DNA from: Candidatus Pacearchaeota archaeon
GTDB lineage: Archaea > Nanobdellota > Nanobdellia > Pacearchaeales > GW2011-AR1
DNA: 64,000 nt
Assembly: GCA_018221305.1 (NCBI GenBank)
Contig: JAAOYK010000051.1
Location: 20,085-84,084, forward strand
Direction: 5' to 3'
Positions 1,230 to 24,699 of the stretch are shown piece after piece (within the stretch, counting starts at the first letter, position 1; each line of letters begins with the position of its first letter). The notes under the pieces are model-generated. The model had not been told where the DNA came from. It saw only the letters and a list, made by a program, of their open reading frames with translations, and ran no database searches. Position numbers and translations under genes: made by a program.

Positions 1230-3200
1230 TCATTTTTTTAAAAGTTTTGGCACAATTCCCTTTGATTTAATAACTTCAAAAATCCAAAGCAGAATCAAAA
1301 AAATATAAAATAAAACAAAAAAAAGCAATACAACAAAAATTAACCTCAAATACCAATAGGGTTTTTTTGAAACATAATTCTTATTAATATATTGCTTATA
1401 TCTGGAACAAAGATGTTTCTCAAAAAATTTCTCATAAGTTATGCCCTCTTCAAACAAGATAGGGCTAACTTCTAGAGGATCAGAAGTTAAGTCATAAGTA
1501 GTTACACTTTTATCTTCTAAAGAATAAACAGATTTAATATTGTTTTTAATTGATCCTACTTTTAATTCCCCAAAAGGTTGCACAGCCATTGCGCAATCCT
1601 CATAATCTTCTTCTTCAAAACCATCCTTTAAGTTAAAAATAAAAGAATTCGGCAAAGTTTGATTATTTAACAAACTAAACAATGTAGCTCTAAAATCCAA
1701 TTGCGAATGACGCCTTAGATTAACAGAACCAACCTTATACTCATGTTCAACATTTTTTGGAGGAATAAACAAAACAGGAATCAAAATGTTATCATCATAC
1801 AGACCCAAAGTATTATACTGATCAGGCTCTTCAAAAATAGGATAACTATGATCTCCAGTAATTATTAATAACGTATTATTATCACTATATTCATCAAAAA
1901 GTTTCATAAAAATATCTAAGTAATAATCTTGCCATGCAAGCGAATTTAAATAATGTTCATACACTTCTTCAGCATTTTTTATTGGAGGATCAAATTTTTT
2001 ATCATCTTCATAAGATTCAAACGGAAAATGATGAGCACTGATTTCAATGTAAGTAAAAATTTGATCGGGATTTTTATAATTATTATTCAGGTAATCAAAA
2101 ACACGCTCAAAAAATATTTCATCATAATATCCCCAATCAGCTTTTGCATCATCTTCTTGCATAATATCGCTTTGATGAATCTCATCAAATCCAACAGTTT
2201 CTATAAAATTTTCAAAATTAGTAAACTCCAAGGTATCTTCCCTAAAGAAAAGTGACCTATACCCAGATTTTCTTAACTGTACTGGGAGGCAGTCCTTATT
2301 TAGTTCATCAAGCCTAAAAGCAAAAGCACGGTTCATATTCAAAAAAACCCCACAAAACATATTTGCTTGAGCTCGAATCGTCCGCACACTATTTCCAATA
2401 TATTTCGGGAAAAAAATGCCCCGAGAAGCATATTTCCAGAGATTTGGTGTGAAAGAAGAGTTATAGTATTCACGTTCAACAGAAAAATTCCCTAAAACTC
2501 CAAAAGAATTTACAGACTCTAATTGCAAGACAATAACATTCATATCAGAATCAGTCTGATAATTAGAATCATCATACAATTGCTTAAAATAATTATTATC
2601 TATATCATATCTTTCATAAGTTTTGCGAACATAATTCATAAATCCAGAATCTGCTGCGCCCTGAACAAAAAGAATAGCTAAAAAAAGAAAAAATAATGGA
2701 ACCACGAGATATAAAGCATAATTTTTATGATTAATATCAATTTCCCATAAAGTCTTTTTTAAAATTCTAAAGATAATATAAATAATAAAAAGAATACCAA
2801 GAGCAATCAAAGTGACTATAAAAAGTCCATTAAATTTAATTGAAGCTATAAATACAGATTTAAGACCTGTAAAAAAGACAACCATATAACTAAAATCTCC
2901 ACCATTAAACAAATTTAAGGCAACCCCAACATAACATAAAAAATATATTGTAGAAAAAGTAATAATAAAAAATTTCTTTAAAAAAATACTTTTTTTCCCA
3001 TTATTAAGCCAGGCCACAAGCATAATTTGGATTAAGTAAAACAAAGCAAGAGACACCACAAAAAAAAAGGAAGTAAGAAGACTATCCCTGAATAAAATAG
3101 CATATAGTAAAAGTGGTAAAGAAAAAATAAACGCAACAATCGAAAAATAAAACGTATTTAAACCTAGTTTTCTTTTCAAAATATTACCTACTCTTTTCAT
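1230..3200 (-). CDS. LtaS-like sulfatase / phosphoglycerol-transferase family membrane protein (alkaline-phosphatase superfamily)
   Basis: 656 aa. N-terminal ~180 aa is multi-TM, followed by an extracytoplasmic domain with VIVLQLESVNSF and IITGDHS motifs typical of LTA-synthase/sulfatase enzymes. There is an extra C-terminal TM. Confidence 0.65.
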   Translation of the reverse strand: MKRVGNILKRKLGLNTFYFSIVAFIFSLPLLLYAILFRDSLLTSFFFVVSLALFYLIQIMLVAWLNNGKKSIFLKKFFIITFSTIYFLCYVGVALNLFNGGDFSYMVVFFTGLKSVFIASIKFNGLFIVTLIALGILFIIYIIFRILKKTLWEIDINHKNYALYLVVPLFFLFLAILFVQGAADSGFMNYVRKTYERYDIDNNYFKQLYDDSNYQTDSDMNVIVLQLESVNSFGVLGNFSVEREYYNSSFTPNLWKYASRGIFFPKYIGNSVRTIRAQANMFCGVFLNMNRAFAFRLDELNKDCLPVQLRKSGYRSLFFREDTLEFTNFENFIETVGFDEIHQSDIMQEDDAKADWGYYDEIFFERVFDYLNNNYKNPDQIFTYIEISAHHFPFESYEDDKKFDPPIKNAEEVYEHYLNSLAWQDYYLDIFMKLFDEYSDNNTLLIITGDHSYPIFEEPDQYNTLGLYDDNILIPVLFIPPKNVEHEYKVGSVNLRRHSQLDFRATLFSLLNNQTLPNSFIFNLKDGFEEEDYEDCAMAVQPFGELKVGSIKNNIKSVYSLEDKSVTTYDLTSDPLEVSPILFEEGITYEKFFEKHLCSRYKQYINKNYVSKKPYWYLRLIFVVLLFFVLFYIFLILLWIFEVIKSKGIVPKLLKK

Positions 3201-3385
3201 TTTACAATCATATGTTTAATAGTCACTATAAATAGTTTTCTACCAAAAATAAAGTCATAAAGTCATAAAAATGAGTAAATAGACCTAATTTTTGACAAAA
3301 TCCATAATAGCAAGCCATCTACAGGCTTACAAAATAACAATTAGCATGCAACAACGTTTATAACAAAGTAAAATTTTTCAAAAAA

Positions 3386-4531
3386 ATGCAAAAAAGAAGG
3401 ATTTTAATTGCTATGCTAGAAATCGGTGACGGGCACAAATCTCCTGCAAATGCTCTAAAAAAATCAATAGAAAAATTATACCCAAAAAAGTACGAAATAA
3501 CAATTCTAGACCTTGCGCAAGAGCTAGGCTCAAAAATATTTTTCAATGCATACCATACATGTTGGACAAAAATAGGCCTAAATCTTCCAGAATCAATGCA
3601 CATAATATATACGCTTACAAATAACAAAATAGCTCAAAGAGCTGAAAGGATTTTGTTACTAAATTTAATAAACAAAACAAAAAAATATCTTATCAAACAA
3701 AAACCAGACCTGCTAATTAGCACACACTATTCAATGACTCACGTATTATCAAGAGCCAGAAGAAAACTAAAGATTCCTCTTATTTCAATAAACACAGATC
3801 CTTTTGATAGTCATCAACTTTGGGCAAGAAAAGATGTTGACAAAGTAATAACTTTTTCTAACCGCGCACATACTCAATTACTGCGAAAAGGAGTTAAAGA
3901 AAACAAATTAAAAATCATCAAAAACTCCTACATTTTAGATCACAAACATTCTTTGCCAACCCAAAACAAACAAAAATTAAGAAAAAAATTGCAACTTACC
4001 AACCAACCAACTATTTTAATGTCTGCAGGAGCAGAGGGAGTAAGCAACTTAAAACTTTTCGTAAAAAAAATCATTCAAAACAATTTAGACTATCAAATAA
4101 TCTTCATATGCGCAAGGAACAAAAAGCTAAAAAAAGAGATCGAAAGAATATCAACAAAAAAATCAAAAACAAACCTTTTAGTTTTAGGTTATGTTGAGAA
4201 TATGCATGAACTTATAGCAGCTTCAGACCTAGTACTTGGAAAACCTGGAGCTTCGCAAACCTTTGAAGTTCTTTCAAAAAATAAACCAATAATTTATACA
4301 TCTTGTATGATCAACGAGTTTCCAACGTTAAAATTTGTTACAAAAAATAAAATTGGATGGTACACTCCAACCACTAAAAAATTTCTACAACTTTTAAACA
4401 AAATAGGGGGAAATCCCGAAATCTTAATAAAAATACAAGAACAAATAAAAAACTTCAAGTTTAGATCTTGCACTCCAGATTTAGCAAAATATATAATAAA
4501 AACATTTCTAAAACCTACTCAAGAGTTTTAG
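3386..4531 (+). CDS. MGDG-synthase / UgtP-like glycolipid glycosyltransferase (GT28)
   Basis: 381 aa. N-terminal ILIAMLEIGDGHKSPANALKKSI matches the (S/G)GGH motif of MGDG-synthase-domain enzymes. The C-terminal half is GT-B like (LGKPGASQTFE). A TTTATAA box at 3357-3363 sits 26 nt before the ATG. Confidence 0.65.
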   Translation: MQKRRILIAMLEIGDGHKSPANALKKSIEKLYPKKYEITILDLAQELGSKIFFNAYHTCWTKIGLNLPESMHIIYTLTNNKIAQRAERILLLNLINKTKKYLIKQKPDLLISTHYSMTHVLSRARRKLKIPLISINTDPFDSHQLWARKDVDKVITFSNRAHTQLLRKGVKENKLKIIKNSYILDHKHSLPTQNKQKLRKKLQLTNQPTILMSAGAEGVSNLKLFVKKIIQNNLDYQIIFICARNKKLKKEIERISTKKSKTNLLVLGYVENMHELIAASDLVLGKPGASQTFEVLSKNKPIIYTSCMINEFPTLKFVTKNKIGWYTPTTKKFLQLLNKIGGNPEILIKIQEQIKNFKFRSCTPDLAKYIIKTFLKPTQEF

Positions 4532-5603
4532 CCAAATTTAGTGCAGCTTCAACAGCCTTATCCATATTTAAATACCGATACTCTGCAAGACGTCCGATAA
4601 AATATACATTTTTTTTATTGTTTGCTTCTTGCAAATATTTTTTTGCCAAAGTCAAATTATTTTCATCCATTAAAGGATAACTTGGCTCCCCATCCCATGT
4701 AAAAAATTCCTTACAAATAACAGTCTCGTTACTATCAAGATTATAAAATTTCTTAAACTCAGTTACACGCGCAAAATCCTTATTGATATCAGGATGATTA
4801 ATTACAGAATTTACCTGAAAACTAGGGATTGAATGTTTTTCAAAAACAAAATTTATCCCACGATATTTTAAAGGACCATATTTATGATTAAAAAATCGAT
4901 CAATAGGACCAGTATAAATAATTTTAGAAGTCTTTAAACGACTTACAACATCAAAAAAGTCAGTATTCAAAGCAATCTTTATATTTTTATGATTCAACAA
5001 ATTTGTAAACAAATTTGTAAACCCCTTACTGGGCATACCTTGAAATTCATCATTAAAATAATTTGGGTTTCTATCATAACGTATCGGTAATCTTTCCAAA
5101 ACCATACGATGCAATTCTTGTGGATACCGATCCCATTGTTTTTTTGTGTAATGTTTTACAAACGCTTCATATAACTCATTTCCAAATTTTGAAACAACAA
5201 CATCTCTTGAGTTTTTTATGTCACTTATTTTTTCTCGAATACTCTCTAAAAAAATTTTTAACTCGTTAGGAGAATTTAAATTTAAGTTGTAATACTTATT
5301 TACAGTATCGAGATTAATAGGTATTGGATAATGTTCTCCTTGATAATCTGCCAGAACCTTGTGTTGATAATCATTCCACTTAGTAAATTTTGACAGATAA
5401 TCAAAAACTTGCTTATTGTCTGTATGAAAAATATGAGGCCCATATTTTTGAATCAAAATATTTCCGTGATTATAATCATAACAATTCCCGCCAATATGAT
5501 CCCTTTTATCCAAAATTAACACAGATTTGCCCGTACTTGCAAGTTGCTCTGCAATAACAGAACCTGCAAATCCGCTACCAACCACAACAACATCATATGC
5601 CAT
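4515..5603 (-). CDS. glf: UDP-galactopyranose mutase
   Basis: 362 aa. N-terminal FAD fold YDVVVVGSGFAGSVIAEQLA...ILDKRDHIGGNCYD and overall length are typical of Glf. Confidence 0.9.
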   Translation of the reverse strand: MAYDVVVVGSGFAGSVIAEQLASTGKSVLILDKRDHIGGNCYDYNHGNILIQKYGPHIFHTDNKQVFDYLSKFTKWNDYQHKVLADYQGEHYPIPINLDTVNKYYNLNLNSPNELKIFLESIREKISDIKNSRDVVVSKFGNELYEAFVKHYTKKQWDRYPQELHRMVLERLPIRYDRNPNYFNDEFQGMPSKGFTNLFTNLLNHKNIKIALNTDFFDVVSRLKTSKIIYTGPIDRFFNHKYGPLKYRGINFVFEKHSIPSFQVNSVINHPDINKDFARVTEFKKFYNLDSNETVICKEFFTWDGEPSYPLMDENNLTLAKKYLQEANNKKNVYFIGRLAEYRYLNMDKAVEAALNLAKTLE

Positions 5604-5611
5604 AAAAGAAA

Positions 5612-5644
5612 ACCAAAAACCAAATTTATAAACTCTTCTTTGCT
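5612..5644 (-). promoter_or_regulatory. 33-nt promoter element (copy 1) containing TATA box TTTATAAA (5625-5632) about 26 nt upstream of the glf ATG
   Basis: ACCAAAAACCAAATTTATAAACTCTTcTTTGCT. Identical except 1 nt to 12006-12038. TATA-to-ATG spacing implies a leaderless transcript. Confidence 0.6.
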
Positions 5645-5752
5645 GTAAAAAAGATAATGCAATACCTAGAATCTCTTTAATTTAATTAATCAAATTTTAG
5701 TATATATTAAGGTACAATTAATTTTATAATAGGACTGATACATAATAAATTT

Positions 5753-6259
5753 ATGCAAAAAAAAGGAAGACTAGTTTGGATCACTGGCCTTGCTGGATCT
5801 GGAAAAACAACCCTAGCAAAAAGGCTTCAAGAGGAAATGGACTACAAACCAGTTCATCTTGACGGCGATAACATCAGAGAAATTTTAGATGAAACCACAA
5901 CACACGGCATTGATGGAAGGCAAAGAACTGCAAAAATTTATTCAAAACTATGCAGTTATCTAACTAATCAAGGTCATGACGTAATCATGAGCACAATCTC
6001 ATTATTTCACGATATTCATGACTACAACAAAGAACATAATAAAAATTACTATGAAGTCTTGCTTCAGGTAGATCCTGATATTTTAAGACAAAGAGATAAA
6101 AAAGATTTATACACAACAGCAGACGGAAATGTTATGGGACTCCACCAAACCCCAGAATTTCCAAAAAATCCTACACTTGTACTTACAAACAATAATGAAG
6201 AAGAGATTGACCAAAACGTTCAAGCAATAATAAAGGTGTTAAACAATGGAAAAGCATAA
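5753..6259 (+). CDS. APS-kinase-fold nucleotide 3'-kinase (Cj1415-like; predicted cytidine diphosphoramidate kinase)
   Basis: 168 aa. P-loop VWITGLAGSGKTTLAKRL, LDGDNIR and a QRDKKDLY region match the adenylylsulfate kinase fold. No ATP sulfurylase is present in the window. A TATA-like TTTATAAT box (5723-5730) is centred about 26 nt upstream of the ATG. Confidence 0.75.
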   Translation: MQKKGRLVWITGLAGSGKTTLAKRLQEEMDYKPVHLDGDNIREILDETTTHGIDGRQRTAKIYSKLCSYLTNQGHDVIMSTISLFHDIHDYNKEHNKNYYEVLLQVDPDILRQRDKKDLYTTADGNVMGLHQTPEFPKNPTLVLTNNNEEEIDQNVQAIIKVLNNGKA

Positions 6260-7025
6260 AGCATCAGATTATACAGGCAAAGGAGAAAATTATCGCAAAT
6301 ACCGGTCTGGATATTCAGATACTGTACTAAACCTTATTCTTGCCCATACAGGCTTAGCTTACAGCGAGCAAAGCAAAACAGTCGCAGACATCGGAGCAGG
6401 AACAGGAATATTTTCAAGGCAGCTAGCAGATAAAGGCCTCAATGTTATTTCAGTAGAACCAAATGATGATATGAGAGCTAATGGGGAAGAATATACCAAA
6501 GATTACCGAAATGTCTCCTGGAGAAAAGGAGATGGAGAAAATACAGGTCTTGCAAATAAATCAGTTAACTTGGTCACAATGGCTTCAGCCTTTCACTGGA
6601 CAGACCCAAACAAATCATTACCAGAATTTTATAGAATATTAAAAGATAAAGGATATGTCACACTTTTATGGAACCCGCTTGTCAAACAAGGAGACCCAAT
6701 CCAAGAACAGGTTGAACAAATCATACAGACCAACATCCCAAACCTGTCCCGTGGTTTCAGAAGCGGAGAAAACTCAAAAGAACTTTTAATGTCAAGCGGA
6801 TATTTTACAGACGTTTTAGAGATGCGTCACGTACACAAAAGCACACAATCAAAAGATCACTACATCAGTGCCTGGAAGGCCGCAAATCATGTAAGAACAA
6901 GTGCTGAAGAAATTGGTCCAAAAGTCTTTGACAACATCATAAACAGTATCACTGACCTTTTGAAAGATAAAGAAACAATTGATGTTCCATACTTAACAAA
7001 GGCCTGGATTGCTCAAAAAAAATAA
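6246..7025 (+). CDS. Class I SAM-dependent methyltransferase (Cj1419/Cj1420-like)
   Basis: 259 aa with SAM motif I VADIGAGTGIFSRQLADKG. It overlaps the upstream gene by 14 nt. Confidence 0.8.
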   Translation: MEKHKASDYTGKGENYRKYRSGYSDTVLNLILAHTGLAYSEQSKTVADIGAGTGIFSRQLADKGLNVISVEPNDDMRANGEEYTKDYRNVSWRKGDGENTGLANKSVNLVTMASAFHWTDPNKSLPEFYRILKDKGYVTLLWNPLVKQGDPIQEQVEQIIQTNIPNLSRGFRSGENSKELLMSSGYFTDVLEMRHVHKSTQSKDHYISAWKAANHVRTSAEEIGPKVFDNIINSITDLLKDKETIDVPYLTKAWIAQKK

Positions 7026-7037
7026 AACTTCTTAAAA

Positions 7038-9407
7038 ATGGTGGATTTTATATTTGGAACTAAAGCAGAAACTTTAAAGAAGATCAAACCACTTGTAAAG
7101 GAAAGTCTTGTTCTTGATCATTTATCTTTTTCAGTAACTGACTGGATAAACAGCAAAGAAGAAATAATCAAAGAAATCATAAAGTTTTTTGACACAGATT
7201 TAATTGCTATAAGGAGTAGCTCATTAAACGAAGACACTCTTAATTCTTCACAAGCAGGAAATTATGAAACAATCTTAAACGTTCCAAAAAATGACATACA
7301 CTCAATAATTAAAGCCGTAGAAAAAGTTAAAGAAAGTTACACAAAAAAAGGACAACCAGACCCAAATGATCAAATTTTAGTTCAGCCAATGATAAAAAAT
7401 GTTATTTTGAGCGGCGTAGTATTTACGCGGTGCCATAATACAGGTGCACCATATCTAGTTATAAACTATGACGACATGTCCGGAAAAACTTATAGTGTCA
7501 CGGGTGGGTCTGGAAACTTAAAAACATTTACTTATCTCAAATCTTCAGAAAAACTTCCAACTAACCCTCACCTAAATAAAGTGATAAAACTCGTAAACGA
7601 GATTGAAACGATTACTAACAATGATAGTTTAGACATAGAATTTGCAATTAATGATATTGGGATCTTCCTATTACAAATACGCCCATTAACAACCTTAAAA
7701 CAAATAGACCCTTTTTTAGATGAAAATCTAAAATCCACAATTAAAAGAATTAAAGAGTTCATTCAGACAAACGATAAAAAGTTTCCAAACCTGCACGGCT
7801 ATAAAGCGATTTTCGGTTCCATGCCTGACTGGAACCCTGCAGAGATAATAGGCGAATCACCAAAACCTTTGGCATTTTCACTTTACAGAGAATTAATTAC
7901 TGATTCAATATGGCCGCTAAGCAGAAAAAAGATCGGATATAAAGATGTTGGCTATCATCCAGGAGTTGTATCTCTTGGCGGCAAACCTTATGTTGATGTG
8001 CGTCTAAGCTTTAACACATTTGTCCCGGCCTCACTTTCAGAAACTACTTCTGAAAAACTAGTTAATTTTTATATAGATAAACTAATAAATAATCCAAAAT
8101 GGCACGACAAAGTAGAATTCAAGATAGCTCATACTTGCTACAAGTTTGGTTTTGAAAAAGAAGAGCAAGAATTACAGCAAAACAACTTCTCCCCTTTACA
8201 GATAAAAGAAATAAAAGATTCATTAATTGAATTGACAAACAAAATTGTTAATAACCACCACACATCAATTGATCAAGAATTAGAGCTCAACTACTCTCTC
8301 GGCAACAGAAGAGAAAAAATAGTCAATTCAGATATCGAAGATGACGTCAAAATTTCTCAACTGATCCATGACTGTAAATATTATGGCACCTTACCATTCT
8401 CAAAACTAGCACGTTTTGCATTCATAGGAAACATTTTATTAACTTCATTAGTAGACAAAGGCGTAGTCACAACAGACGAAAAAGATTTATTTTTCAGATC
8501 TATCCGCTCTGTAGCAACTGAATTTTTAGAAACATTACAAGAATTTAAAAACAACCAAATAACTAAAGAAGATTTTTTAAAAAAATTTGGGCACTTAAGG
8601 CCAGGAACTTATGATCTTTGCTCAAAAACATACAATGAAAATTTTGATGAATATTTTATTATAACAAGTATAAAAGAGAAAAATGAACAACAAATCCAAT
8701 TTGATTTTAGTATTGAGAAAAAGACAATCATAGATAACGAGATTAAAAAAGAAGGCCTTGACTTCTCAGCAGACCAGTTTTTAGAGTTTACAAGAAAAGC
8801 ATTAATAGCCCGCGAAAGATCAAAATTTGAGTTTACAAAAAATCTTAGCCTGGTACTTGACTATTGCCACAAATTTATGTCAAAACACGGGTTTAGTAAA
8901 GAAGACGTAACTTTTTTAGAAATTAATGACATAATCTTATTTTCACACAAATCAAAATCAATAAACGAGATTGAAGAACTAAAAAATAAAATTAAAAAAA
9001 GTATGACCAACTATCAAATAACAAAAGCTCTTAGATTGCCACCATTAATATACTTAGACAGAAGCACAGAGTATTTTCATCAATTTGACAGTCAGCCAAA
9101 CTATATTACAAACAAATCCATTACTGGAAAGATCATAAATTTATCAGAACACAAAACAACAGAAGATATAAAAAACAAAATAGTCTTGATAACAAATGCT
9201 GATCCAGGGTATGACTGGATCTTTGGCCACAACATTAAAGGATTAATAACAAAATATGGTGGAGTAGCGTCTCACATGTCAATAAGATGTGCAGAATTCG
9301 GACTTCCAGCAGCAATCGGTTGTGGAGAAACAATCTTTGAACATATCCGCAAATTTGAAAATATTGAGCTTAATTGCGGAACAAACCAAATAAAAGGAAT
9401 ATCTTAA
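7038..9407 (+). CDS. PEP-utilising (PEP synthase/PPDK-family) phosphohistidine enzyme, Cj1418 L-glutamine-kinase-like
   Basis: 789 aa. N-terminal nucleotide-binding domain (IAIRSSSLNEDTLNSSQAGNYETILNV). C-terminal swivelling phospho-His domain (GGVASHMSIRCAEFGLPAAIGCG). Confidence 0.75.
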   Translation: MVDFIFGTKAETLKKIKPLVKESLVLDHLSFSVTDWINSKEEIIKEIIKFFDTDLIAIRSSSLNEDTLNSSQAGNYETILNVPKNDIHSIIKAVEKVKESYTKKGQPDPNDQILVQPMIKNVILSGVVFTRCHNTGAPYLVINYDDMSGKTYSVTGGSGNLKTFTYLKSSEKLPTNPHLNKVIKLVNEIETITNNDSLDIEFAINDIGIFLLQIRPLTTLKQIDPFLDENLKSTIKRIKEFIQTNDKKFPNLHGYKAIFGSMPDWNPAEIIGESPKPLAFSLYRELITDSIWPLSRKKIGYKDVGYHPGVVSLGGKPYVDVRLSFNTFVPASLSETTSEKLVNFYIDKLINNPKWHDKVEFKIAHTCYKFGFEKEEQELQQNNFSPLQIKEIKDSLIELTNKIVNNHHTSIDQELELNYSLGNRREKIVNSDIEDDVKISQLIHDCKYYGTLPFSKLARFAFIGNILLTSLVDKGVVTTDEKDLFFRSIRSVATEFLETLQEFKNNQITKEDFLKKFGHLRPGTYDLCSKTYNENFDEYFIITSIKEKNEQQIQFDFSIEKKTIIDNEIKKEGLDFSADQFLEFTRKALIARERSKFEFTKNLSLVLDYCHKFMSKHGFSKEDVTFLEINDIILFSHKSKSINEIEELKNKIKKSMTNYQITKALRLPPLIYLDRSTEYFHQFDSQPNYITNKSITGKIINLSEHKTTEDIKNKIVLITNADPGYDWIFGHNIKGLITKYGGVASHMSIRCAEFGLPAAIGCGETIFEHIRKFENIELNCGTNQIKGIS

Positions 9408-9408
9408 A

Positions 9409-10203
9409 ATGAAAGCAATAATTTGTGCAGCAGGTATGGGGACACGTCTTGGAAAATATACAGAAAATCTTCCAAAATGTATGCTAGAGTTTAACAACAA
9501 ACCCTTACTTGAACACCAAGTAGATACATTAAGATCCTCAGGAATAAATGACATAAGCATTGTCAGAGGTTACATGCCAGACAAGATAAACATCACTGGA
9601 ACCAAATATTATGAAAATCCAGACTTTGCTACAACAAACATGGTTGCTTCATTAATGACTGCAGAAAAAGAAATGTCCACAGATTCAGAGATCCTTATTT
9701 GTTATGCAGACATTCTTTATGAAAAACGTTTGATTGACAAAATCCAGAAAAGTAAATCACCTGTTTCCGTCCTTGTAGACGATGACTGGGCCCCTTACTG
9801 GATGGCAAGACTAGATGATTGGAGATCAGATATTGAGAGTTTAACCTATGATTCAGAAAGCAAAATTATAGACATTGGAAACCCACATTGCAAACTCGAA
9901 GATGCAATGTCAAGATATATTGGATTAATAAAATTCAATAATCAAGGCATCCAAGCATTTAAAGAAATTTTTCATGAAAATAAAAAGAAACATTGGAATT
10001 CAAGTGAGCCCTGGCTGCGCTCTAAATCATTTAAACAAGCCTACATGACATGCATGTTACAGGAAATGGTAAACAAGGGAATAGATGTACATGCCGTGCA
10101 TACAAAAAAAGGATGGCTTGAGTTTGACACATCCGAGGACATAGAAAAAGCAATACAATGGAACAAGACAGGAGAAATTAAAAAGTACATAAATCTTAAA
10201 TAA
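9409..10203 (+). CDS. Nucleotidyltransferase (NTP_transferase fold; Cj1416-like cytidylyltransferase)
   Basis: 264 aa. N-terminal MKAIICAAGMGTRLG signature. Starts 2 nt after the upstream stop. Confidence 0.8.
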   Translation: MKAIICAAGMGTRLGKYTENLPKCMLEFNNKPLLEHQVDTLRSSGINDISIVRGYMPDKINITGTKYYENPDFATTNMVASLMTAEKEMSTDSEILICYADILYEKRLIDKIQKSKSPVSVLVDDDWAPYWMARLDDWRSDIESLTYDSESKIIDIGNPHCKLEDAMSRYIGLIKFNNQGIQAFKEIFHENKKKHWNSSEPWLRSKSFKQAYMTCMLQEMVNKGIDVHAVHTKKGWLEFDTSEDIEKAIQWNKTGEIKKYINLK

Positions 10204-10205
10204 AA

Positions 10206-10898
10206 ATGTTAGCATTAATAACCCAACGAGATTTTGCAGACCCAAAACTTGGAAAGCTAGACGCATTAGAACAAAACTATGTTGATTACTATCATCAAGA
10301 CTGGGGCTTTACTCTGGTTCCAGTTTCAACACAAACCAAAGTTTTAGGATCATACTTTGATCTAGACCCTTCTTTAATAATCCTTTCAGGAGGCAATGAT
10401 ATTTCTCCAGACCTCTATAATGGAAAACCCTTTCCTAGCACATCAATATCTAAACAAAGGGACAGACTCGAGAGAAAAATAATATCAGCAGCCATAAACA
10501 GAAAAATTCCAATACTTGGTGAATGTCGTGGCATGCAACTTTTAAACACTTATTTTAAAGGAACCTTGCTACCAGACATTAAGCAATCTTACCAAGAAAA
10601 CCATACCGCAACAACACATCCAATCCAAATAATTCATGAAGATCTTGCAAAAACACTTGGCATAAAAAACGCTACAGTTAATTCATACCATAATCAAGGC
10701 ATTACAGAAAAAGAATTATCACCCCAGCTAAAGGCTTTCGCAAAAACAAAAAATGGAATTATTGAAGGCATATATCACCCAAACTTACCAATTCTTGGCA
10801 TAATGTGGCATCCAGAACGAGGAGACTGTACAAAACAAGTTAGTGAAAAAATAATCGACACTTTCTTAAGAGATAAAAACTATTTTACAAAGACTTAA
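10206..10898 (+). CDS. Class I glutamine amidotransferase / peptidase C26 (PuuD- and Cj1417-like gamma-glutamyl hydrolase)
   Basis: 230 aa. Nucleophile elbow ILGECRGMQLLN and His/Glu motif GIMWHPER. Confidence 0.85.
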   Translation: MLALITQRDFADPKLGKLDALEQNYVDYYHQDWGFTLVPVSTQTKVLGSYFDLDPSLIILSGGNDISPDLYNGKPFPSTSISKQRDRLERKIISAAINRKIPILGECRGMQLLNTYFKGTLLPDIKQSYQENHTATTHPIQIIHEDLAKTLGIKNATVNSYHNQGITEKELSPQLKAFAKTKNGIIEGIYHPNLPILGIMWHPERGDCTKQVSEKIIDTFLRDKNYFTKT

Positions 10899-11994
10899 TC
10901 TTTGACCTTATTTTTAAATCATCATGTGCTAGATGCAAAACTTCTTTTAAAATCCAAAACAGTTTAACTAATGGCCTACCAATCAATGGCACCATGTATA
11001 ATATTCTTAAACCTCTCAAACCAAAACTTCTTAATCCTTTATAATGACCATTTATCATAGATAATGACAAATTTCGTCTTGTAGCAAAATATTCAACCCA
11101 CAACGGTTCAAACATTTTACGCTTTTTATAATCAAACATTGTAAACATGTCTGAGAACATAAACTGTGTAAAATTAATCTCAGCAGTTGACATTTTATCT
11201 TCCCATTTTGGTTTAGCAAAAACAGGGTTTGGAACATCACTTAAAACACCAGTAATCGATGTTACTCTTTGCTTATTCATACCATAAAAAGGTAGTCCAA
11301 AAAAAGTTGCAGAATTTATTGTTTTATCTTTACTTATCTTTAACCAATCAACTAATACTTGTTTTATCTTTTCATAATCAGTATGCAATGTTTCATGCCG
11401 TATTACCAACATATCCATTTTTCTCTTTTTCTTTAACTTCTTATATAAATTTAATGTACTACGCAAAATCATAACTGCAGCAACTAAGGATTCAGTCTTT
11501 TTCCCTCCAAGAAAGCTCGACCTGGGGTCTCTAGCCAAAAATAACATTTTTTGTTTAGGAAAATGTCCTACCATCTCCAAGAAAACATCTGGCCAATGCG
11601 AATGTGCAAAAATATATTTTACTTTTTTCAAATCCTTTTTAAAATGTCGGGCATAGGCATAATGAACCCCAATAAAAACAGTTTTTGCACTTATCCCGAA
11701 TTCATCAATATACTCTTTAAAATATTTTCTAAATTCCTTTTTTGGAAATTTTTTTTCTAAATCATAATTTCCAATATACATATCAACACGCTCCTTCATA
11801 CGGTTATAATTCAAATCAACAAGATCTTCAAAGTTTTTACCTTTTACATCCTTTTCTCGCAAATAATAAAATATAATAGTTACAATTTCCGGATGTCCAT
11901 CAAAAAGCCCTTGCATAAAAACACTACTAGCCCTACCAAAAGGAATCATATTTATCAAGTTAATCTTGTCGGGGTGAAAATTATGAAAAATCAT
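10885..11994 (-). CDS. Sulfotransferase-fold protein (candidate PAPS-like-donor transferase)
   Basis: The track ORF extends to 12099, but that would overlap the divergent gene and its promoter. The ATG at 11994 (MIFHNFHPDK...) sits ~28 nt from the TATA box. PFGRASSVF (5'-PSB-like) and LARDPRSSFLG (3'-PB-like) motifs are present. Confidence 0.5.
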   Translation of the reverse strand: MIFHNFHPDKINLINMIPFGRASSVFMQGLFDGHPEIVTIIFYYLREKDVKGKNFEDLVDLNYNRMKERVDMYIGNYDLEKKFPKKEFRKYFKEYIDEFGISAKTVFIGVHYAYARHFKKDLKKVKYIFAHSHWPDVFLEMVGHFPKQKMLFLARDPRSSFLGGKKTESLVAAVMILRSTLNLYKKLKKKRKMDMLVIRHETLHTDYEKIKQVLVDWLKISKDKTINSATFFGLPFYGMNKQRVTSITGVLSDVPNPVFAKPKWEDKMSTAEINFTQFMFSDMFTMFDYKKRKMFEPLWVEYFATRRNLSLSMINGHYKGLRSFGLRGLRILYMVPLIGRPLVKLFWILKEVLHLAHDDLKIRSKIKSL

Positions 11995-12005: not shown

Positions 12006-12038
12006 ACCAAAAACCAAATTTATAAACTCTTATTTGCT
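12006..12038. promoter_or_regulatory. 33-nt promoter element (copy 2); palindromic TATA TTTATAAA (12019-12026) is equidistant from divergent starts 11994(-) and 12048(+)
   Basis: ACCAAAAACCAAATTTATAAACTCTTaTTTGCT. The TATA centre lies 28.5 nt from the minus-strand ATG and 25.5 nt from the plus-strand ATG. Confidence 0.6.
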
Positions 12039-12047
12039 CAAAAAACA

Positions 12048-13310
12048 ATGATTGAATATATAATATTAGCCTTATTTTTAGGAATTTTAGCCGGAACATT
12101 TACAGGCCTAATACCAGGAATTCATATAAATTTAATAACAGTAATACTTTTAGGCCTTTCTGCAACATTACTTTCTATCACAACACCACTTATTTTAGTA
12201 ATCTTTATTGTATCAATGTCAATAACTCACACATTTATTGACTACATACCTTCAATATTTTTAGGAGCACCTGATGAAGATTCTTTTTTATCAATTCTTC
12301 CAGGTCATCAGTTATTACTTAAAGGCAGGGCGTATCCTGCAGTAATCCTTACATTATACGGAAGTTTAACAGCCTTACTAATCATCCTAATATTTACTCC
12401 ATTATTTTTATATATTCTTCCAAAAGTCTACCCATTTCTTAGCCAAATTATTTGGGTCATACTTCTCATAGTCTCTTTATACATAATTTTAGACGAAGGC
12501 GGGCTTTCAAAAAAAGGTTTTATATTAAACTATAACAAAAAATTATGGGCACTAATTATTTTCATTTTGGCAGGATTTTTAGGCATAACAACATTAAACT
12601 TAAACATCTCCCAACCCCTACTTCCACTACTCACAGGACTATTTGGAGCAAGCAGCATTATTTTAAGCATTAAGCATAAAACAAAAGTACCAAAACAGAA
12701 AATTATTCCATTAAAAGAAATAAGATTAAACAAAAAGTCAGCAATTAAAGCTACAATAGGATCTATTATTGCATCCCCATTTACTGCATTTCTTCCAGGC
12801 CTTGGAGCAAGTACTGCCGCAGTCATAGGCAAATCAGCAACAAGAATAAAAGATCAACGCGAATTCTTATTTTTACTTGGAGCAATTAATACAATTGTTA
12901 TGGGTCTCTCATTTATAACATTATACGCAGTAGGCAAAACACGAACAGGAGCTGCTATCGCAGTTTCACAGCTGATTCCAGAATTAACACACATAAATCT
13001 GATCTATATAATAGCAGTAATATTATTTTCAGGAATAATAGCCGCGGTTATAACAATTCTATTATCAAAACTTATTGCAAAAAATATACATCGTTTTAAT
13101 TATGCGAAAATCTCATTAGTTGTTCTAGGAATTTTATTTTTTCTGGTCTTCTTACTCTCAGACATGTTAAACCTGATTGGAGGATTAATTGGCTTAATAG
13201 TCTTTATAACAGCTACTGCTCTTGGCCTTTTTGCAATTCAATTAGGAATTAAAAGAATACATCTTATGGGTTGTTTAATAATCCCAATAATTTTGTTTTA
13301 TCTGCTTTAA
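12048..13310 (+). CDS. TctA-family (DUF112) membrane transporter subunit
   Basis: 420 aa, about 10-12 TM helices. Duplicated PG(I/L)G motifs (GTFTGLIPGIHINL; FLPGLGASTAAVIG). Confidence 0.6.
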   Translation: MIEYIILALFLGILAGTFTGLIPGIHINLITVILLGLSATLLSITTPLILVIFIVSMSITHTFIDYIPSIFLGAPDEDSFLSILPGHQLLLKGRAYPAVILTLYGSLTALLIILIFTPLFLYILPKVYPFLSQIIWVILLIVSLYIILDEGGLSKKGFILNYNKKLWALIIFILAGFLGITTLNLNISQPLLPLLTGLFGASSIILSIKHKTKVPKQKIIPLKEIRLNKKSAIKATIGSIIASPFTAFLPGLGASTAAVIGKSATRIKDQREFLFLLGAINTIVMGLSFITLYAVGKTRTGAAIAVSQLIPELTHINLIYIIAVILFSGIIAAVITILLSKLIAKNIHRFNYAKISLVVLGILFFLVFLLSDMLNLIGGLIGLIVFITATALGLFAIQLGIKRIHLMGCLIIPIILFYLL

Positions 13311-14839: not shown

Positions 14840-17086
14840 ATGGTAGAAAAAAACGAAGGTTCTAGCTCGTTAAAAGATCAAAATCTATGTTGCTTTTTAA
14901 GCAATTATCCCCCAAAAGAGTGTGGGATAGCAACGTTTGCTAAAGACCTACTTTTTGCAATGAACAAAAGATTTAATCCTAGATTAAAATCTCGTGTGAT
15001 CGCTTTAGATGATTCAACAAGCATATATAATTATGATAAAAATGTTATCATGCAGATTAATAAGGAAAGCATAGACAGTTATATTGAACATGCCAAAAAT
15101 GTCAATAATAACCCAGACATAAAACTAGTTTGCATACAGCACGAATTTGGGATTTTTGGAGGAGAATACGGGAAAAACTTGATTCCATTTTTAGAACATG
15201 TTGAAAAACCAGTAGTTATCACATTTCATAGTGTACTTCCAGATCCTGATGAAGAAAGGAGAGAAGTTGTTAAGAAAATTGTAGCCAAATCTTCTGCAAT
15301 AGTTGTCATGGCAGATATCGCAGTAGAGATATTAAATAGAGATTACGGGATTGATAAAAGCAAATTATATGTCATACGTCATGGCATCCCAAACGTACCT
15401 TTTTATCCAAGCACTTATTTTAAAAAACGCCTAAACTTAAAAAATCGCACCGTACTTTCAACATTTGGACTTTTAAGCAGAGGAAAAGGAATAGAAGATG
15501 CTATTGAATCATTAGTCCCTTTAGTTAAAAAGTATCCAAACATCCTTTACTTAATAATTGGTGAAACTCATCCAGCAATAAGAAAAAATGAAGGAGAAGT
15601 TTATCGTGAAGAATTAATCAAAAAGGTTGAAAGTTTAGGCCTGCAAAATAATGTCAAATTTTATAATAAATATTTATCCTTACAAGAAATCATCCAGTAT
15701 TTACTAGCAACAGACATTTATCTATGCACAAACTTAGAAAGAAACCAAATTGTAAGCGGAACTTTATCTTATGCATTAGGATGCGGACGTGCGGTTGTTT
15801 CAACACCAATAATATACGCAGAAGAAATTCTTGCGAACAATGCAGGATTATTAGCAGAATTCAAAAATCCAGAATCATTTTCAAATGCTATTGAACGCAT
15901 TTTATCAGATAAGACGCTACGTACAGACATTGAAAGAAATGCATACCAGAAAAGCAGATCAATGATTTGGTCAAATGTTGCAGCAAGATATCTAAGTACA
16001 TTTAACAGGGTCGTAAGGCTTAGAGAAGAAACAACAAAAAAGTATCCTCCAGTAAAAATGAATCACCTATACTCATTAACAGACAATCTTGGATGTATCC
16101 AATTTTCAAGAGATGCTGTGCCAGACAAGACCTCAGGTTACACAACAGATGATAATGCACGAGCATTTATCGCTGCTACAATACACCATAACCTAACCAA
16201 ATCAGCAAGATCATTAAAGGCTGCCAAGATTTATTTAGACTTTGTAGAACAAGCTCAAGAAAAAAATGGAAATTTTAAAAACAATTTTCAAAATGAAAAC
16301 GAAGTCCTAGACACTTATAGCCCAGATTCTTTTGGAAGAACAATGTGGGCACTAGGGTACGCTATAAACAAAAGTAAAGATAAAGACATAAAAATTAAAG
16401 CAAACAAATTATTTCTTAAAGCCCTACCACGCATAAAACAACTGGATGCTGCACGAGCAAAAGCATTTACAATAATTGGACTCACACATTATTACAAAAA
16501 ACGGGGAGGTAGCAAGATAAGGATATTAATTAAATGGCTTGCGAACTCACTTCTCAAACAATACAAACACGAATCAAGTGCAGACTGGCATTGGTTTGAA
16601 AAAAACTTAACCTATTCAAATTCAAAAATACCTGAAGCACTTTTCAGGGCATATGAGATAACAAAAAACAAAAAATATCGTGATGTTGCTGAAAGAACCT
16701 TACACTTCTTGTCAGACATATTATTTGTTAATGACGAAATGATGCCAATTGGACAAGATGGCTGGTTTAATAAAGACGGGAAAAGAGCATTATTTGATCA
16801 ACAACCAGTTGACGTGTCTTCCATGGTACAAACTTATCTCATAGCATCTAAAATAACAGGAGATAAACACTACCATGAAAAAGCAGTTCTAGCCTTTAAC
16901 TGGTTCTTAGGTAGAAATTATCTGAAACAAATGGTTTATAATGAAACAACCGGAGGATGTTTTGACGGATTATCAAAAGACAATGTTAATCTAAATCAAG
17001 GCGCAGAATCAACAATCTCTTACTTAATAGCACGTCTTTTACTTGAAGAGTTCAAGCAAAAAAGTAAGAAAAGAAAAAGGAAATAA
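14840..17086 (+). CDS. GT4-family glycosyltransferase fused to a C-terminal alpha/alpha-toroid-like domain
   Basis: 748 aa. N-terminal FLSNYPPKECGIATFAKDL and a GT-B core (~aa 1-390). C-terminal ~350 aa is helical-repeat rich (DDNARAFIAA, FGRTMWALGYA, GAESTISYLIA). Confidence 0.65.
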   Translation: MVEKNEGSSSLKDQNLCCFLSNYPPKECGIATFAKDLLFAMNKRFNPRLKSRVIALDDSTSIYNYDKNVIMQINKESIDSYIEHAKNVNNNPDIKLVCIQHEFGIFGGEYGKNLIPFLEHVEKPVVITFHSVLPDPDEERREVVKKIVAKSSAIVVMADIAVEILNRDYGIDKSKLYVIRHGIPNVPFYPSTYFKKRLNLKNRTVLSTFGLLSRGKGIEDAIESLVPLVKKYPNILYLIIGETHPAIRKNEGEVYREELIKKVESLGLQNNVKFYNKYLSLQEIIQYLLATDIYLCTNLERNQIVSGTLSYALGCGRAVVSTPIIYAEEILANNAGLLAEFKNPESFSNAIERILSDKTLRTDIERNAYQKSRSMIWSNVAARYLSTFNRVVRLREETTKKYPPVKMNHLYSLTDNLGCIQFSRDAVPDKTSGYTTDDNARAFIAATIHHNLTKSARSLKAAKIYLDFVEQAQEKNGNFKNNFQNENEVLDTYSPDSFGRTMWALGYAINKSKDKDIKIKANKLFLKALPRIKQLDAARAKAFTIIGLTHYYKKRGGSKIRILIKWLANSLLKQYKHESSADWHWFEKNLTYSNSKIPEALFRAYEITKNKKYRDVAERTLHFLSDILFVNDEMMPIGQDGWFNKDGKRALFDQQPVDVSSMVQTYLIASKITGDKHYHEKAVLAFNWFLGRNYLKQMVYNETTGGCFDGLSKDNVNLNQGAESTISYLIARLLLEEFKQKSKKRKRK

Positions 17087-17094: not shown

Positions 17095-17964
17095 TTAAAC
17101 CCACGTCAAACCCTGGAAATCAAACTTAAAATCAATAACATGCTTTCCAAAATATTTTCTTATTTTACGCTTATCACCAAGAAATAAAATACATCCCCCA
17201 CCCCCAGAGCCACAAACCTTTGCTGCAACAGCCCCATTTCGCATGCCTTGCTTGATTAGTTTTTTTGTTTTAGATGGAACAATAGATTTATGCAATTTCT
17301 CCCTTTCCTTAGTTTCTTCATTCATTAATTCTGCAAACCTTCCTAAGTCATGCTTCAATAAGGCATCCTTCATCTCAATAGCAATATGTTTTATCCTCAA
17401 CAAATTTTTTGTGTTCTTTCCTTTTTTAAGATTTTCAATCATAGAGCCATTAGTATTTCCAGAAAAGTGCGGCTTGCCAGTATAAACCAAAACAAGTTTA
17501 TCCTCAAACTCTTTTATAAACTTCTTGCCCAACTTTAACGGCTTTACTTTTACCTTATCTCCTTTAAACTCAATAAAATTAATTCCACCAAAAGCTGCAG
17601 CATACTGATCCTGTTTTCCTCCAATCAAACCCATAGCTTGCTCTAAAGAATAAACAGTCTCTGCTAATTGCATTTTATTTTTAAAACTAACCCCGCCCTT
17701 CTTCCTCATCTTTATTTGACTAATCAAAGCAAGCCACACCAAATTCATAACTCCACTAGTACCAAGCCCGCTACTTGTAGGCGTATTTCCAGTATATTCC
17801 AAGTGGACATTCTCACTAGTCTTAATAATCTTACCAACAACATATCGATTAATCCCACAATTTAAAACTGCTCCACCATGCGTATGAGTAAACGGATGAA
17901 TATCAGTAGTTCCACCTCCAAAATCGATTCGTACTGGTGCTCGCACTTTTTTAGTTTTTATCAT
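17095..17964 (-). CDS. GHMP-family sugar kinase (HddA / fucokinase-like)
   Basis: 289 aa. RAPVRIDFGGGTTD N-terminus and GHMP motif PTSSGLGTSGV. Confidence 0.7.
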   Translation of the reverse strand: MIKTKKVRAPVRIDFGGGTTDIHPFTHTHGGAVLNCGINRYVVGKIIKTSENVHLEYTGNTPTSSGLGTSGVMNLVWLALISQIKMRKKGGVSFKNKMQLAETVYSLEQAMGLIGGKQDQYAAAFGGINFIEFKGDKVKVKPLKLGKKFIKEFEDKLVLVYTGKPHFSGNTNGSMIENLKKGKNTKNLLRIKHIAIEMKDALLKHDLGRFAELMNEETKEREKLHKSIVPSKTKKLIKQGMRNGAVAAKVCGSGGGGCILFLGDKRKIRKYFGKHVIDFKFDFQGLTWV

Positions 17965-23881: not shown

Positions 23882-23883
23882 AA

Positions 23884-24699
23884 ATGGTATATCACCCACA
23901 ACCATACATAATAGACCACGTAAAAACAATTAATAAAGAAGTAAAACTATTTAGAATAAAGTCAGACTTAAACCCAAAACCAGGCCAATTCTTTGAAATA
24001 TCTATGCCAGGGATTGGCGAATGCCCATTAGCATCTTGTTCACATAACCCGCACCAAATAGACATGTTAACCCGCCTTGCAGGAAACGTAACAACTGCAT
24101 TTTTTCAATTAAAAAAAGGCGACATAGTCCACATCAGGGGACCATACGGTAAAGGATTTCCGTTAGGCAAACTAAAAAATAAAAACCTAATCCTAATAGC
24201 AGGAGGGACCGGCCTTGCCCCAATAACATCACTAATAAACTATATCGAACAAAATAGATCACATTTTGGAAATATTATAATTTATTTCGGTTTTAGAAAT
24301 CCAGAGTACATTCTTTTAAAAGATAAAATAAAGGAATGGAGAAAGAAATTTAAGGTAACAATTTGCCTTGACAAACTAGAAGGCGACAAACAATGTAAAG
24401 AAGGCTTTGTCCATGAGGTAATGAATAAAGCTCCACCCGACACAGCAGAAACTATTGCCCTTATGTGCGGCCCTGAAATTATGATGAAATCAGTAACACA
24501 AACTCTTAACAAGCTAGGATTAACTGACGACAAGATTTACTGGAGCATGGAACGCCGAATGGAATGTGCTTTTGGGAACTGTGGCCGATGCTTAATTCAG
24601 GATGTCTATGTTTGTCGTGATGGACCTGTTTTTCGTTATGATCATATTAAACCAAGGTTAGAAAACGAAGAAACATCAAACAAAATAAAAACACACTAA
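23884..24699 (+). CDS. hydG: Sulfhydrogenase gamma subunit (FAD/NAD(P)-binding, 2Fe-2S)
   Basis: 271 aa. GGTGLAP nucleotide motif and C-terminal CAFGNCGRCLI cluster. Confidence 0.8.
   Translation: MVYHPQPYIIDHVKTINKEVKLFRIKSDLNPKPGQFFEISMPGIGECPLASCSHNPHQIDMLTRLAGNVTTAFFQLKKGDIVHIRGPYGKGFPLGKLKNKNLILIAGGTGLAPITSLINYIEQNRSHFGNIIIYFGFRNPEYILLKDKIKEWRKKFKVTICLDKLEGDKQCKEGFVHEVMNKAPPDTAETIALMCGPEIMMKSVTQTLNKLGLTDDKIYWSMERRMECAFGNCGRCLIQDVYVCRDGPVFRYDHIKPRLENEETSNKIKTH

Follow-up and report, generated by a model that had tools for sequence, protein, structure and literature searches.

A repeat-bracketed six-gene module in a Pacearchaeota contig: probable Campylobacter-type phosphoramidate chemistry and a candidate sulfotransferase-fold transferase

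The locus

The O-methyl-phosphoramidate (MeOPN) group is familiar in glycobiology as a hallmark of Campylobacter capsules, where phages use it as a receptor, it confers resistance to serum and it is a vaccine epitope. Here we describe an archaeal gene module that probably directs a related modification, found in a 64,000-nucleotide (nt) stretch of a Candidatus Pacearchaeota archaeon (NCBI GenBank assembly GCA_018221305.1, contig JAAOYK010000051.1, positions 20,085 to 84,084 of the forward strand), which was analysed over its whole length and is referred to below as the window. The module consists of five same-strand genes, here called K3, MT, GlnK, CT and C26, and of a sixth gene, STL (sulfotransferase-like), on the opposite strand (Table 1). 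In the open reading frame (ORF) map, K3 and MT overlap by 14 nt and the following junctions are gaps of 12, 1 and 2 nt, while STL converges on C26 with an overlap of 14 nt. An earlier note on this DNA had read the five tightly packed genes as a complete Campylobacter-type MeOPN cassette. The ORF map places them identically, Pfam and NCBIfam confirm their families, and the core of that reading stands on profiles, synteny and archaeal context; what finds no support is the supposed exclusivity of such groups to Campylobacter, the bracketing of the cassette by glf, the identity of a nearby kinase as HddA and the sequon-laden surface proteins as target of the decoration. The five donor and methyl genes were correctly named as its content, but the ORF of the probable transferase, STL, had been left unassigned.

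Table 1. Features of the module and its surroundings (window positions, unless a locus handle is given; aa, amino acids).
Feature	Coordinates	Strand	Basis or remark
glf, UDP-galactopyranose mutase	4515..5603	-	TIGR00031 341.7 bits (cutoff 303.75); Pfam GLF E=1.6e-66
Direct repeat, left copy, 53 nt	5612..5664	.	repeat search
K3, APS-kinase-fold kinase, 168 aa	5753..6259	+	Pfam APS_kinase; NF004041
MT, class I SAM-dependent methyltransferase, 259 aa	6246..7025	+	Pfam Methyltransf_11 E=7.8e-17
GlnK, L-glutamine kinase family, 789 aa	7038..9407	+	NF004508; Pfam PPDK_N and PEP-utilizers
CT, LicC-like nucleotidyltransferase, 264 aa	9409..10203	+	Pfam NTP_transf_3 E=6e-15
C26, class I glutamine-amidotransferase-type hydrolase, 230 aa	10206..10898	+	Pfam Peptidase_C26/GATase, E=2.3e-36
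STL, sulfotransferase-fold protein, 369 aa	10885..11994	-	predicted structure and family profile
Direct repeat, right copy, 53 nt	12006..12058	.	repeat search
CysQ-like gene	L006 11868-12695; L007 11872-12693; L003 5879-6688; L004 11802-12599		Micrarchaeota and other archaeal cassettes

The bracketing by glf does not hold, as a single glf is present, at the left flank only, divergently transcribed from the cassette. A second glf at the right flank (10885-11994) was considered and rejected; that ORF is without GLF signal and has a sulfotransferase fold instead. No glf was seen beside the cassette in other archaeal loci, and the gene is present in bacterial loci of the Anaerotruncus type (L096 and L097); glf is neighbouring context, not a conserved module member.

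Exactly six genes lie between the two copies of a direct repeat, which share 85% identity, have their first 26 nt in common and are spaced 6394 nt apart. The 25-nt core of the repeat has two exact occurrences in the 64 kb, with 0 expected by chance. Each copy is placed like a promoter region: the repeat holds a palindromic TATA-like box, TTTATAAA, located 22-32 nt upstream of the glf and STL ATG codons. The left copy, at 9 nt from the glf ATG, spans the region 89-141 nt upstream of the K3 ATG and keeps an apparent decayed TctA start codon region; the right copy lies 12 nt from the STL ATG, with its box 22 nt upstream of the ATG of a TctA-family gene at 12048. In the closest relative, locus L016 (74% GlnK identity), the same six genes are bracketed by a 63-nt repeat of different sequence (76% identity, 8585-8647 and 14980-15042, spacing 6395), again with a palindromic TTTATAAA box. 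The repeats suggest either that the six-gene unit was inserted with duplication of a promoter region, leaving an insertion scar or att-like site, or that two co-regulated promoters have undergone concerted evolution.

Enzymes of donor synthesis

The largest protein of the module, GlnK, matches the NCBIfam model NF004508 at 918.2 bits (cutoff 501) over model positions 7-787 of 789. NF004508 (PRK05849) is an 'equivalog' model that is still named hypothetical protein, with EC 2.7.3.13 given for the family; we take it to represent the family of Cj1418, the glutamine kinase of C. jejuni, in keeping with the naming of homologues at JGI, where proteins 41-47% identical to the window GlnK are called 'glutamine kinase'. 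The protein comprises an N-terminal ATP-binding PPDK_N domain (residues 12-136), a family-specific centre and a C-terminal phospho-His swivel domain (PEP-utilizers, 713-780). In an alignment of 14 diverse homologues, the central domain displays long invariant motifs, and His746 of the swivel domain, within GGVASHM, is invariant and the predicted phospho-acceptor. Full-length family membership, the invariant histidine and the JGI naming together bear out the proposed likeness to Cj1418. No solved structure of the GlnK family was found in the PDB, an exact look-up returned no identical copy of the window GlnK on other contigs, and a literature search for PRK05849 and PRK05541 found nothing.

K3 satisfies the model NF004041 (PRK05541), which we take to be the Cj1415 family, at 146.8 bits (cutoff 127). 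On the models for adenosine 5'-phosphosulfate (APS) kinase, K3 remains below cutoff throughout (TIGR00455 apsK 87.9 bits against 138.7, NF003013 65.6 against 163, NF002059 82.4 against 244), and nine further cassette-linked kinases, from archaea and one Anaerotruncus-type locus, behave in the same way, above the NF004041 cutoff and below those for APS kinase. The P-loop, GLAGSGKTT, is intact. No ATP sulfurylase is encoded in the 64-kb window, nor in any archaeal or K3-containing locus fetched, and the sole cysDN pair seen adjoins a K3-less cassette on a Vibrio plasmid. An orthodox CysC was considered for this 168-aa protein and rejected, since it falls below every APS-kinase threshold and has no sulfurylase nearby. 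With the NF004041 match and the linkage to the glutamine kinase trio, the comparison with Cj1415 made in the earlier note is upheld, and K3 is probably a cytidine diphosphoramidate 3'-kinase of the Cj1415 type, as judged by its profile matches.

For C26, the best NCBIfam model is NF045546 (gamma-glutamyl-CDP-amidate hydrolase), at 91.4 bits and under the cutoff of 250. Seven further hydrolases encoded in such cassettes also find their best match in this model, with 80-122 bits (110 for the orthologue in locus L097). Cys107 in a CRG motif and His202 and Glu204 in WHPER form a catalytic triad that is invariant in nine cassette-linked sequences. C26 is thus a probable Cj1417-type gamma-glutamyl-CDP-amidate hydrolase, in the sense of 'works like' and not of a proven equivalog. 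The closest solved structure to CT is the CTP:phosphocholine cytidylyltransferase LicC (1jyk, E=1.3e-16), and the superfamily-level match and the context suggest that CT is probably a CTP:phosphoglutamine cytidylyltransferase of the Cj1416 type. MT is a generic class I S-adenosylmethionine (SAM) enzyme with the SAM motif VADIGAGTG, and O-methylation of the phosphoramidate, a role like that of Cj1419/Cj1420, is its probable function. The families that had been proposed for the nucleotidyltransferase and the hydrolase are correct, but the step names attached to them follow a superseded order. The accepted order in the literature runs from glutamine phosphate through CDP-L-glutamine to CDP-amidate, and the name of NF045546 agrees with it.

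A sulfotransferase-fold protein as the sixth member

STL itself matches no Pfam or NCBIfam model, and its orthologues in the same position of related loci give weak matches to Pfam Sulfotransfer_1 or Sulfotransfer_3. The AlphaFold model of STL has a mean pLDDT of 66, with most of the N-terminal 230 residues at 70-95 and the C-terminal part forming a long helix. In a Foldseek comparison with the PDB, the top 15 matches are all sulfotransferases (best E=2e-6, Foldseek probability 1.0), and the matches down to E≈0.01 comprise TPST1/2, the sulfotransferase domains of CurM and OLS, Stf9 and NDST, which depend on 3'-phosphoadenosine-5'-phosphosulfate (PAPS). The profile of a 40-member STL family matches TPST1 at E=1.1e-8 with both nucleotide-binding motifs aligned: the 5'-phosphosulfate-binding loop, where family 'lgRsSS..LLDgHpei' faces TPST1 PRSGTTLMRAMLDAHPDI, and the 3'-phosphate-binding motif, where family 'vRDpRasflS' faces TPST1 'VRDGRASVHS'. 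The corresponding elements of STL are the loop-like G20-R21-A-S23-S24 and the 3'-phosphate-binding-like R155-D-P-R158...S163, and R21, S23, R155-D-P-R158, S163 and H200-E201 are invariant or nearly so in the family. Searched against 1.84 billion representatives, the family hidden Markov model (HMM) retrieved 42 clusters at E<1e-30 and 958 at E<1e-3.

A database gene call (P0121) and the placement of the promoter-like repeat support an STL start at 11994. For both reasons, and because it would overlap the divergent TctA gene, a longer reading of 404 aa beginning at 12099 was rejected.

Conservation and distribution of the module

The earlier note had called for a synteny check in related genomes. 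The same five families occur together, accompanied by an ST-like (sulfotransferase-like) gene and in several gene orders, in nine distinct related archaeal loci, and they recur together in dozens of metagenome loci; their co-location is not chance. An ST-like gene adjoins the cassette in every one of the archaeal loci (nine distinct ones) with enough flank, and, apart from L015, the archaeal loci whose flanks are long enough also show MT in synteny. The closest relatives of all six proteins come from metagenome-assembled genomes (MAGs) labelled Nanoarchaeota, Woesearchaeota or Pacearchaeota, and the archaeal MAG loci centred on GlnK belong to a Nanoarchaeota archaeon, two hosts labelled only 'archaeon', Ca. 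Anstonella and Ca. Burarchaeum. Gene fusions join the same partners: in L003, K3 is fused to MT (a 435-aa product) and CT to C26, and CT is fused to GlnK in many bacterial proteins of about 1000 aa.

Two scans widened the survey. A scan of 185,579 species genomes for ST-like proteins used a 12-sequence alignment with narrow patterns, the 40-sequence alignment being too divergent, and gave seven loci, all archaeal (Nanoarchaeota, Woesearchaeota, Micrarchaeia, unclassified archaea and a Methanoregula sp.); that only archaeal loci were returned is explained by the narrowness of the 12-sequence patterns. A metagenome scan with a GlnK alignment yielded at least 577 loci; 80 of these were retained for local HMM scans. 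Where GlnK is flanked by at least 5 kb in both directions, 17 loci hold both K3 and an ST-like gene, 6 hold K3 alone, none holds the ST-like gene alone and 9 hold neither (Fisher p=1.8e-4). MT was found in 26 of the 32 loci with K3 versus 2 of the 12 without it, and a CysQ-like gene in 12/32 versus 0/12. These CysQ-like genes, of the inositol-monophosphatase family, lie inside or beside archaeal cassettes (Table 1), and their best model is TIGR01331 at 151-192 bits, below its cutoff; their presence in relatives fits the clearance of a 3',5'-bisphosphate nucleotide by-product.

The GlnK family as a whole is very large, with more than 4,199 clusters at 90% identity in a homologue search, spread over bacteria and archaea. 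Its hosts include DPANN and other archaea, Patescibacteria, Helicobacteraceae, Flavobacteria and Spirochaetes, and it is carried on plasmids of Vibrio, Azospirillum, Cupriavidus, Agrobacterium and Roseovarius.

Individual loci display the variety of arrangements. In a Methanoregula sp. MAG (L015, JBAZQT010000004.1, 4290-10879), CT, K3, a GlnK 36% identical to that of the window, C26 and a 297-aa ST-like gene lie together, which extends the module beyond DPANN within Archaea. L097 (7764-16970) encodes a protein identical to WP_055244878.1 of the cultured human-gut Firmicute Anaerotruncus colihominis; its cassette comprises K3, two tandem ST-like genes of about 560 aa, MT, GlnK, C26, CT and a PHP-family protein, with glf and family 2 glycosyltransferase (GT2) genes upstream. 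The PHP protein scores best on the model for 3',5'-nucleoside bisphosphate phosphatase, where its 193 bits fall short of the cutoff. A K3-type cassette is also present in a cultured plant-associated bacterium, on plasmid AZO_p6 of Azospirillum lipoferum 4B (L102, NC_016588.1, 4632-17236). There the kinase domain forms the C-terminus of an 846-aa protein named 'adenylyl-sulfate kinase', and two genes that NCBI calls 'sulfotransferase domain-containing' follow 3-7 kb downstream; the N-terminal 650 aa of the 846-aa protein gave no match to the ST-like HMMs, and no fusion is claimed. In a contig of the IMG/VR giant-virus bin GVMAG-M-3300009496-9 (L099, 6663-10166), for which contamination is possible, a single ORF of about 1167 aa is a triple fusion of C26, CT and GlnK, and no kinase or ST-like gene was found near it.

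Proposed pathway and alternative readings

Taken together, the six-gene module probably makes an activated phosphoramidate donor from L-glutamine and transfers the group, O-methylated, to a hydroxyl of a cell-surface glycan. The four steps of donor synthesis, whose chemistry is read by homology, very likely follow those of C. jejuni. GlnK, as an L-glutamine kinase, would supply L-glutamine phosphate, which CT would join with CTP into CDP-L-glutamine; C26, with Cys107, His202 and Glu204, would hydrolyse off glutamate to leave cytidine diphosphoramidate; and K3 would phosphorylate the 3'-OH, giving 3'-phospho-CDP-amidate, a structural analogue of PAPS. STL would then pass the phosphoramidyl group to a sugar acceptor and release cytidine 3',5'-bisphosphate, on the cytoplasmic side of the membrane because the donor is a nucleotide. 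MT would O-methylate the phosphoramidate at some stage, and the cytidine 3',5'-bisphosphate would be cleared by a CysQ-like nucleotidase in the archaeal relatives or by a PHP-type one in Anaerotruncus. Wzx-type flippase genes stand directly beside the ST-like gene in L001 and L016 and close to the cassette in L004, an arrangement that fits the decoration of a lipid-linked glycan before export. An acceptor containing galactofuranose is possible, because glf is divergent from the cassette.

On balance we favour STL as the phosphoramidyl (MeOPN) transferase acting on 3'-phospho-CDP-amidate, a role suggested by its modelled fold and its place in the module. The transfer step of MeOPN has not been reconstituted even in Campylobacter, according to the literature, and our searches there found nothing connecting MeOPN transfer with sulfotransferases, nor any experimental precedent for phosphoramidyl transfer by a sulfotransferase-fold enzyme. 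A profile search with the bacterial ST-like proteins returned seven proteins, none from Campylobacter.

Several observations weigh against this reconstruction. The archaeal members are known from genes alone, and their likeness to the C. jejuni enzymes was judged from family-level matches. C26 reaches just 91 of the 250 bits that the curated Cj1417 model asks for, and the assignments of CT and MT go no further than superfamily and context. The STL model is moderate (pLDDT 66, TM-score 0.4-0.5), and a sulfotransferase fold together with an APS-kinase-like gene and CysQ is equally what marks an ordinary PAPS sulfation system. Of the 23 well-flanked loci with K3, 6 have no ST-like gene; the loci behind the co-occurrence counts are not phylogenetically independent; and no bisphosphate nucleotidase was found in the 64-kb window.

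The most radical alternative holds that GlnK is an enzyme of the phosphoenolpyruvate (PEP) synthase, pyruvate phosphate dikinase or rifampin phosphotransferase type and that the cluster is a coincidental neighbourhood. Pfam, indeed, sees just PPDK_N and PEP-utilizers in this protein, NCBI labels its homologues 'PEP/pyruvate-binding domain-containing protein' or 'PEP-utilizing enzyme', and its PDB sequence matches are PEP synthases and the rifamycin phosphotransferase Rph, although through the swivel domain only. Yet the full-length NF004508 score of 918 bits compares with 62.8 for PEP synthase, the next best model, and 36 for Rph, so that the grouping with either enzyme which the earlier note had named as fatal to its claim is not seen; the PEP/pyruvate-binding TIM-barrel domain is lacking; and the five-gene synteny is strictly conserved, fusions included. 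PEP synthase and rifampin phosphotransferase were accordingly excluded as identities by the profile scores, and with synteny added the coincidental reading appears effectively refuted, its likelihood being negligible. A subtler possibility is a mixed system, in which K3, STL and the CysQ-like protein form an ordinary kit for PAPS-dependent glycan sulfation and the trio of GlnK, CT and C26 makes CDP-amidate or another CDP-linked compound separately. The APS_kinase, Sulfotransfer and CysQ-type families do correspond exactly to the PAPS toolkit, and NCBI names the bacterial counterparts 'adenylyl-sulfate kinase' and 'sulfotransferase'. However, all cassette-linked kinases belong to NF004041 and fall below every APS-kinase threshold, the loci are devoid of ATP sulfurylase as described above, the kinase is found fused to a methyltransferase whose step sulfation does not need, kinase and ST-like genes were seen only in loci holding GlnK, in variable orders, and the homologous C. 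jejuni kinase is reported to act on CDP-amidate. With no PAPS synthesis and an obligate linkage to the CDP-amidate pathway, the context argues against a role of STL in PAPS-dependent sulfate transfer, and we regard the mixed system as quite improbable.

It could also be that the donor is made as proposed while the product is something other than a MeOPN surface glycan, be it an unmethylated phosphoramidate, a modified lipid or protein or a small-molecule natural product, with MT acting elsewhere. Unmethylated phosphoramidate has been reported in the literature from the lipopolysaccharide (LPS) of Xanthomonas and Shewanella, some Campylobacter strains with cj1416-1418 are without MeOPN signal, and sulfotransferase-fold enzymes serve many acceptor classes, including protein tyrosine and polyketides. 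The neighbours of the module, by contrast, are consistently genes of glycan assembly in the window and its relatives alike (glf, glycosyltransferases of families GT4, GT2 and GT28, Wzx-type flippases and sugar-nucleotide enzymes), and MT is found alongside the kinase and, in L003, as a fusion with it; such a different product is unlikely. Having set these readings beside the phosphoramidyl-transfer pathway, we retain the latter and give about an even chance to the wider proposition built on it, namely that the cassette-tied sulfotransferase-fold proteins are the missing phosphoramidyl transferases and constitute a new reaction class with a dedicated nucleotidase recycling the by-product, that the repeat-bracketed unit moves horizontally among DPANN archaea, methanogens and bacteria, and that the decorated glycans are widespread.

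Neighbourhood and host

The assignment of the cassette to an archaeon, made in the earlier note, agrees with the relatives of the six proteins and with the rest of the window. The latter encodes a triosephosphate isomerase of the short archaeal type (NF003302, 204 bits, cutoff 132), whose sole PDB matches are the chains 1hg3, 2h6r, 5csr and 1w0m, which we take to be archaeal, and an archaeal-type class I aldolase. A four-gene operon at 22931-26767 (+), with Fer4, NAD-binding, small and large subunits, resembles the group 3b sulfhydrogenase type of NiFe hydrogenase, and the maturation gene hypA lies nearby at 29067-29390 (-). The window returned no tRNA or Rfam matches, and a scan for sigma-70 promoters and intrinsic terminators stayed at background level, as expected for an archaeon.

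Left of glf (1230-4531) are the genes for a 656-aa membrane-anchored sulfatase-family protein, with an architecture like that of LtaS and phosphoglycerol transferases, and for a GT28 glycosyltransferase resembling monogalactosyldiacylglycerol synthase; the pair is a hint of glycolipid or teichoic-acid-like polymer synthesis beside the module. The kinase encoded at 17095-17964 had been called HddA-like. Its membership of the GHMP kinase family is confirmed, but not the identity with HddA (131 bits against a model cutoff of 600). On the far side of the hydrogenase genes, five consecutive ORFs at 37812-52416 (-) encode apparent secreted or surface proteins rich in N-x-S/T sequons, two of them very large (2348 aa with Ig-like domains and 1222 aa with a beta-helix). 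The 2348-aa protein (41337-48383) holds 116 N-x-S/T sites versus 47 expected from its composition, a richness typical of heavily N-glycosylated archaeal surface proteins. At 53478-63624 (+), a 1428-aa protein made almost entirely of PAS domains (at least 10) is followed by genes for substrate-binding-protein-like, HAMP-domain and histidine-kinase proteins, which is an unusually elaborate sensory set for a small-genome archaeon.

Significance and comparison with known systems

The complete and tightly conserved donor pathway is encoded in DPANN archaea, a Methanoregula MAG, gut Firmicutes, plasmids of Azospirillum and Vibrio and, as the triple fusion, even a giant-virus bin, and given this broad spread, glycan decorations with P-N bonds are probably widespread. 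The contention that such groups belong to Campylobacter exclusively is contradicted by the phosphoramidates of Xanthomonas and Shewanella LPS and by the very wide distribution of the GlnK family, although the glutamine kinase is still described as 'C. jejuni-specific' in a review of 2022. If the reconstruction is true, phosphoramidate-decorated surface glycans are an overlooked common microbial feature and not a Campylobacter curiosity. DPANN archaea attach to host cells, and the chemistry of their surface glycans bears on host recognition and virus defence. STL offers a candidate for the unreconstituted transfer step, one that would explain the 3'-phosphate of the donor, and the cultured carriers Anaerotruncus colihominis and Azospirillum lipoferum 4B are tractable organisms. 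What is already known, from C. jejuni, is the pathway as such; the part that could be new is the idea of a sulfotransferase-fold transferase.

With the C. jejuni MeOPN pathway, the window module shares the glutamine kinase, the cytidylyltransferase, the hydrolase, the 3'-kinase and SAM methyltransferase genes, clustered in a glycan-biosynthesis neighbourhood. The C. jejuni locus belongs to a bacterium and has two methyltransferases (Cj1419/1420), whereas the window module belongs to an archaeon, has one methyltransferase and, unlike its counterpart, is free of homopolymeric phase-variation tracts and bracketed by a direct repeat. The candidate transferase here, the sulfotransferase-fold STL, has 369 aa, against about 600 aa for each of the C. 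jejuni MeOPN transferases Cj1421/1422. The tandem ST-like genes of about 560 aa that stand beside K3, MT and GlnK in the Anaerotruncus-type loci have a layout reminiscent of cj1421-cj1422.

A variant without K3 is exemplified by a Helicobacteraceae MAG (L008, 8001-13561) and a Vibrio alfacsensis plasmid (NZ_AP024168.1, L103, 7455-13030). GlnK, CT and C26 are homologous and syntenic there and lie among glycosyltransferase genes, but GlnK is fused to a CT domain in a protein of about 1000 aa, accompanied by C26 and a further CT, the 3'-kinase, the ST-like gene and usually the methyltransferase are missing, and a gene of the TagF-like CDP-glycerol glycerophosphotransferase family is found instead. 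This variant suggests direct transfer from CDP-amidate, and the TagF-like phosphotransferase of the K3-less loci fits a donor used either with or without the 3'-phosphate.

Within Archaea, homologues of Cj1416-1418 next to glycan genes have been proposed in silico for the Borg elements of Methanoperedens (bioRxiv 10.1101/2024.11.05.622173). The archaeal locus that the earlier note presented as new biology is real, but its novelty is reduced by that proposal and by the automatic labelling of homologues as glutamine kinase. The Borg cluster as described has four genes, is phosphonate-associated and has no reported 3'-kinase, methyltransferase or transferase, whereas the window module is chromosomal, of DPANN type and equipped with K3, MT and an ST-like gene.

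The logic of the proposed pathway is that of PAPS sulfation, in which an APS-kinase-fold enzyme likewise produces a 3'-phosphorylated donor for a sulfotransferase-fold transferase, with a CysQ-type nucleotidase (present here in the relatives of the window). The two systems differ in that the module's loci are without ATP sulfurylase, that its kinase scores short of the APS-kinase equivalog thresholds and that the system is invariably found with the glutamine kinase trio; the group transferred and its nucleoside carrier are sulfuryl and adenosine in sulfation, and phosphoramidyl and cytidine in the pathway proposed here.

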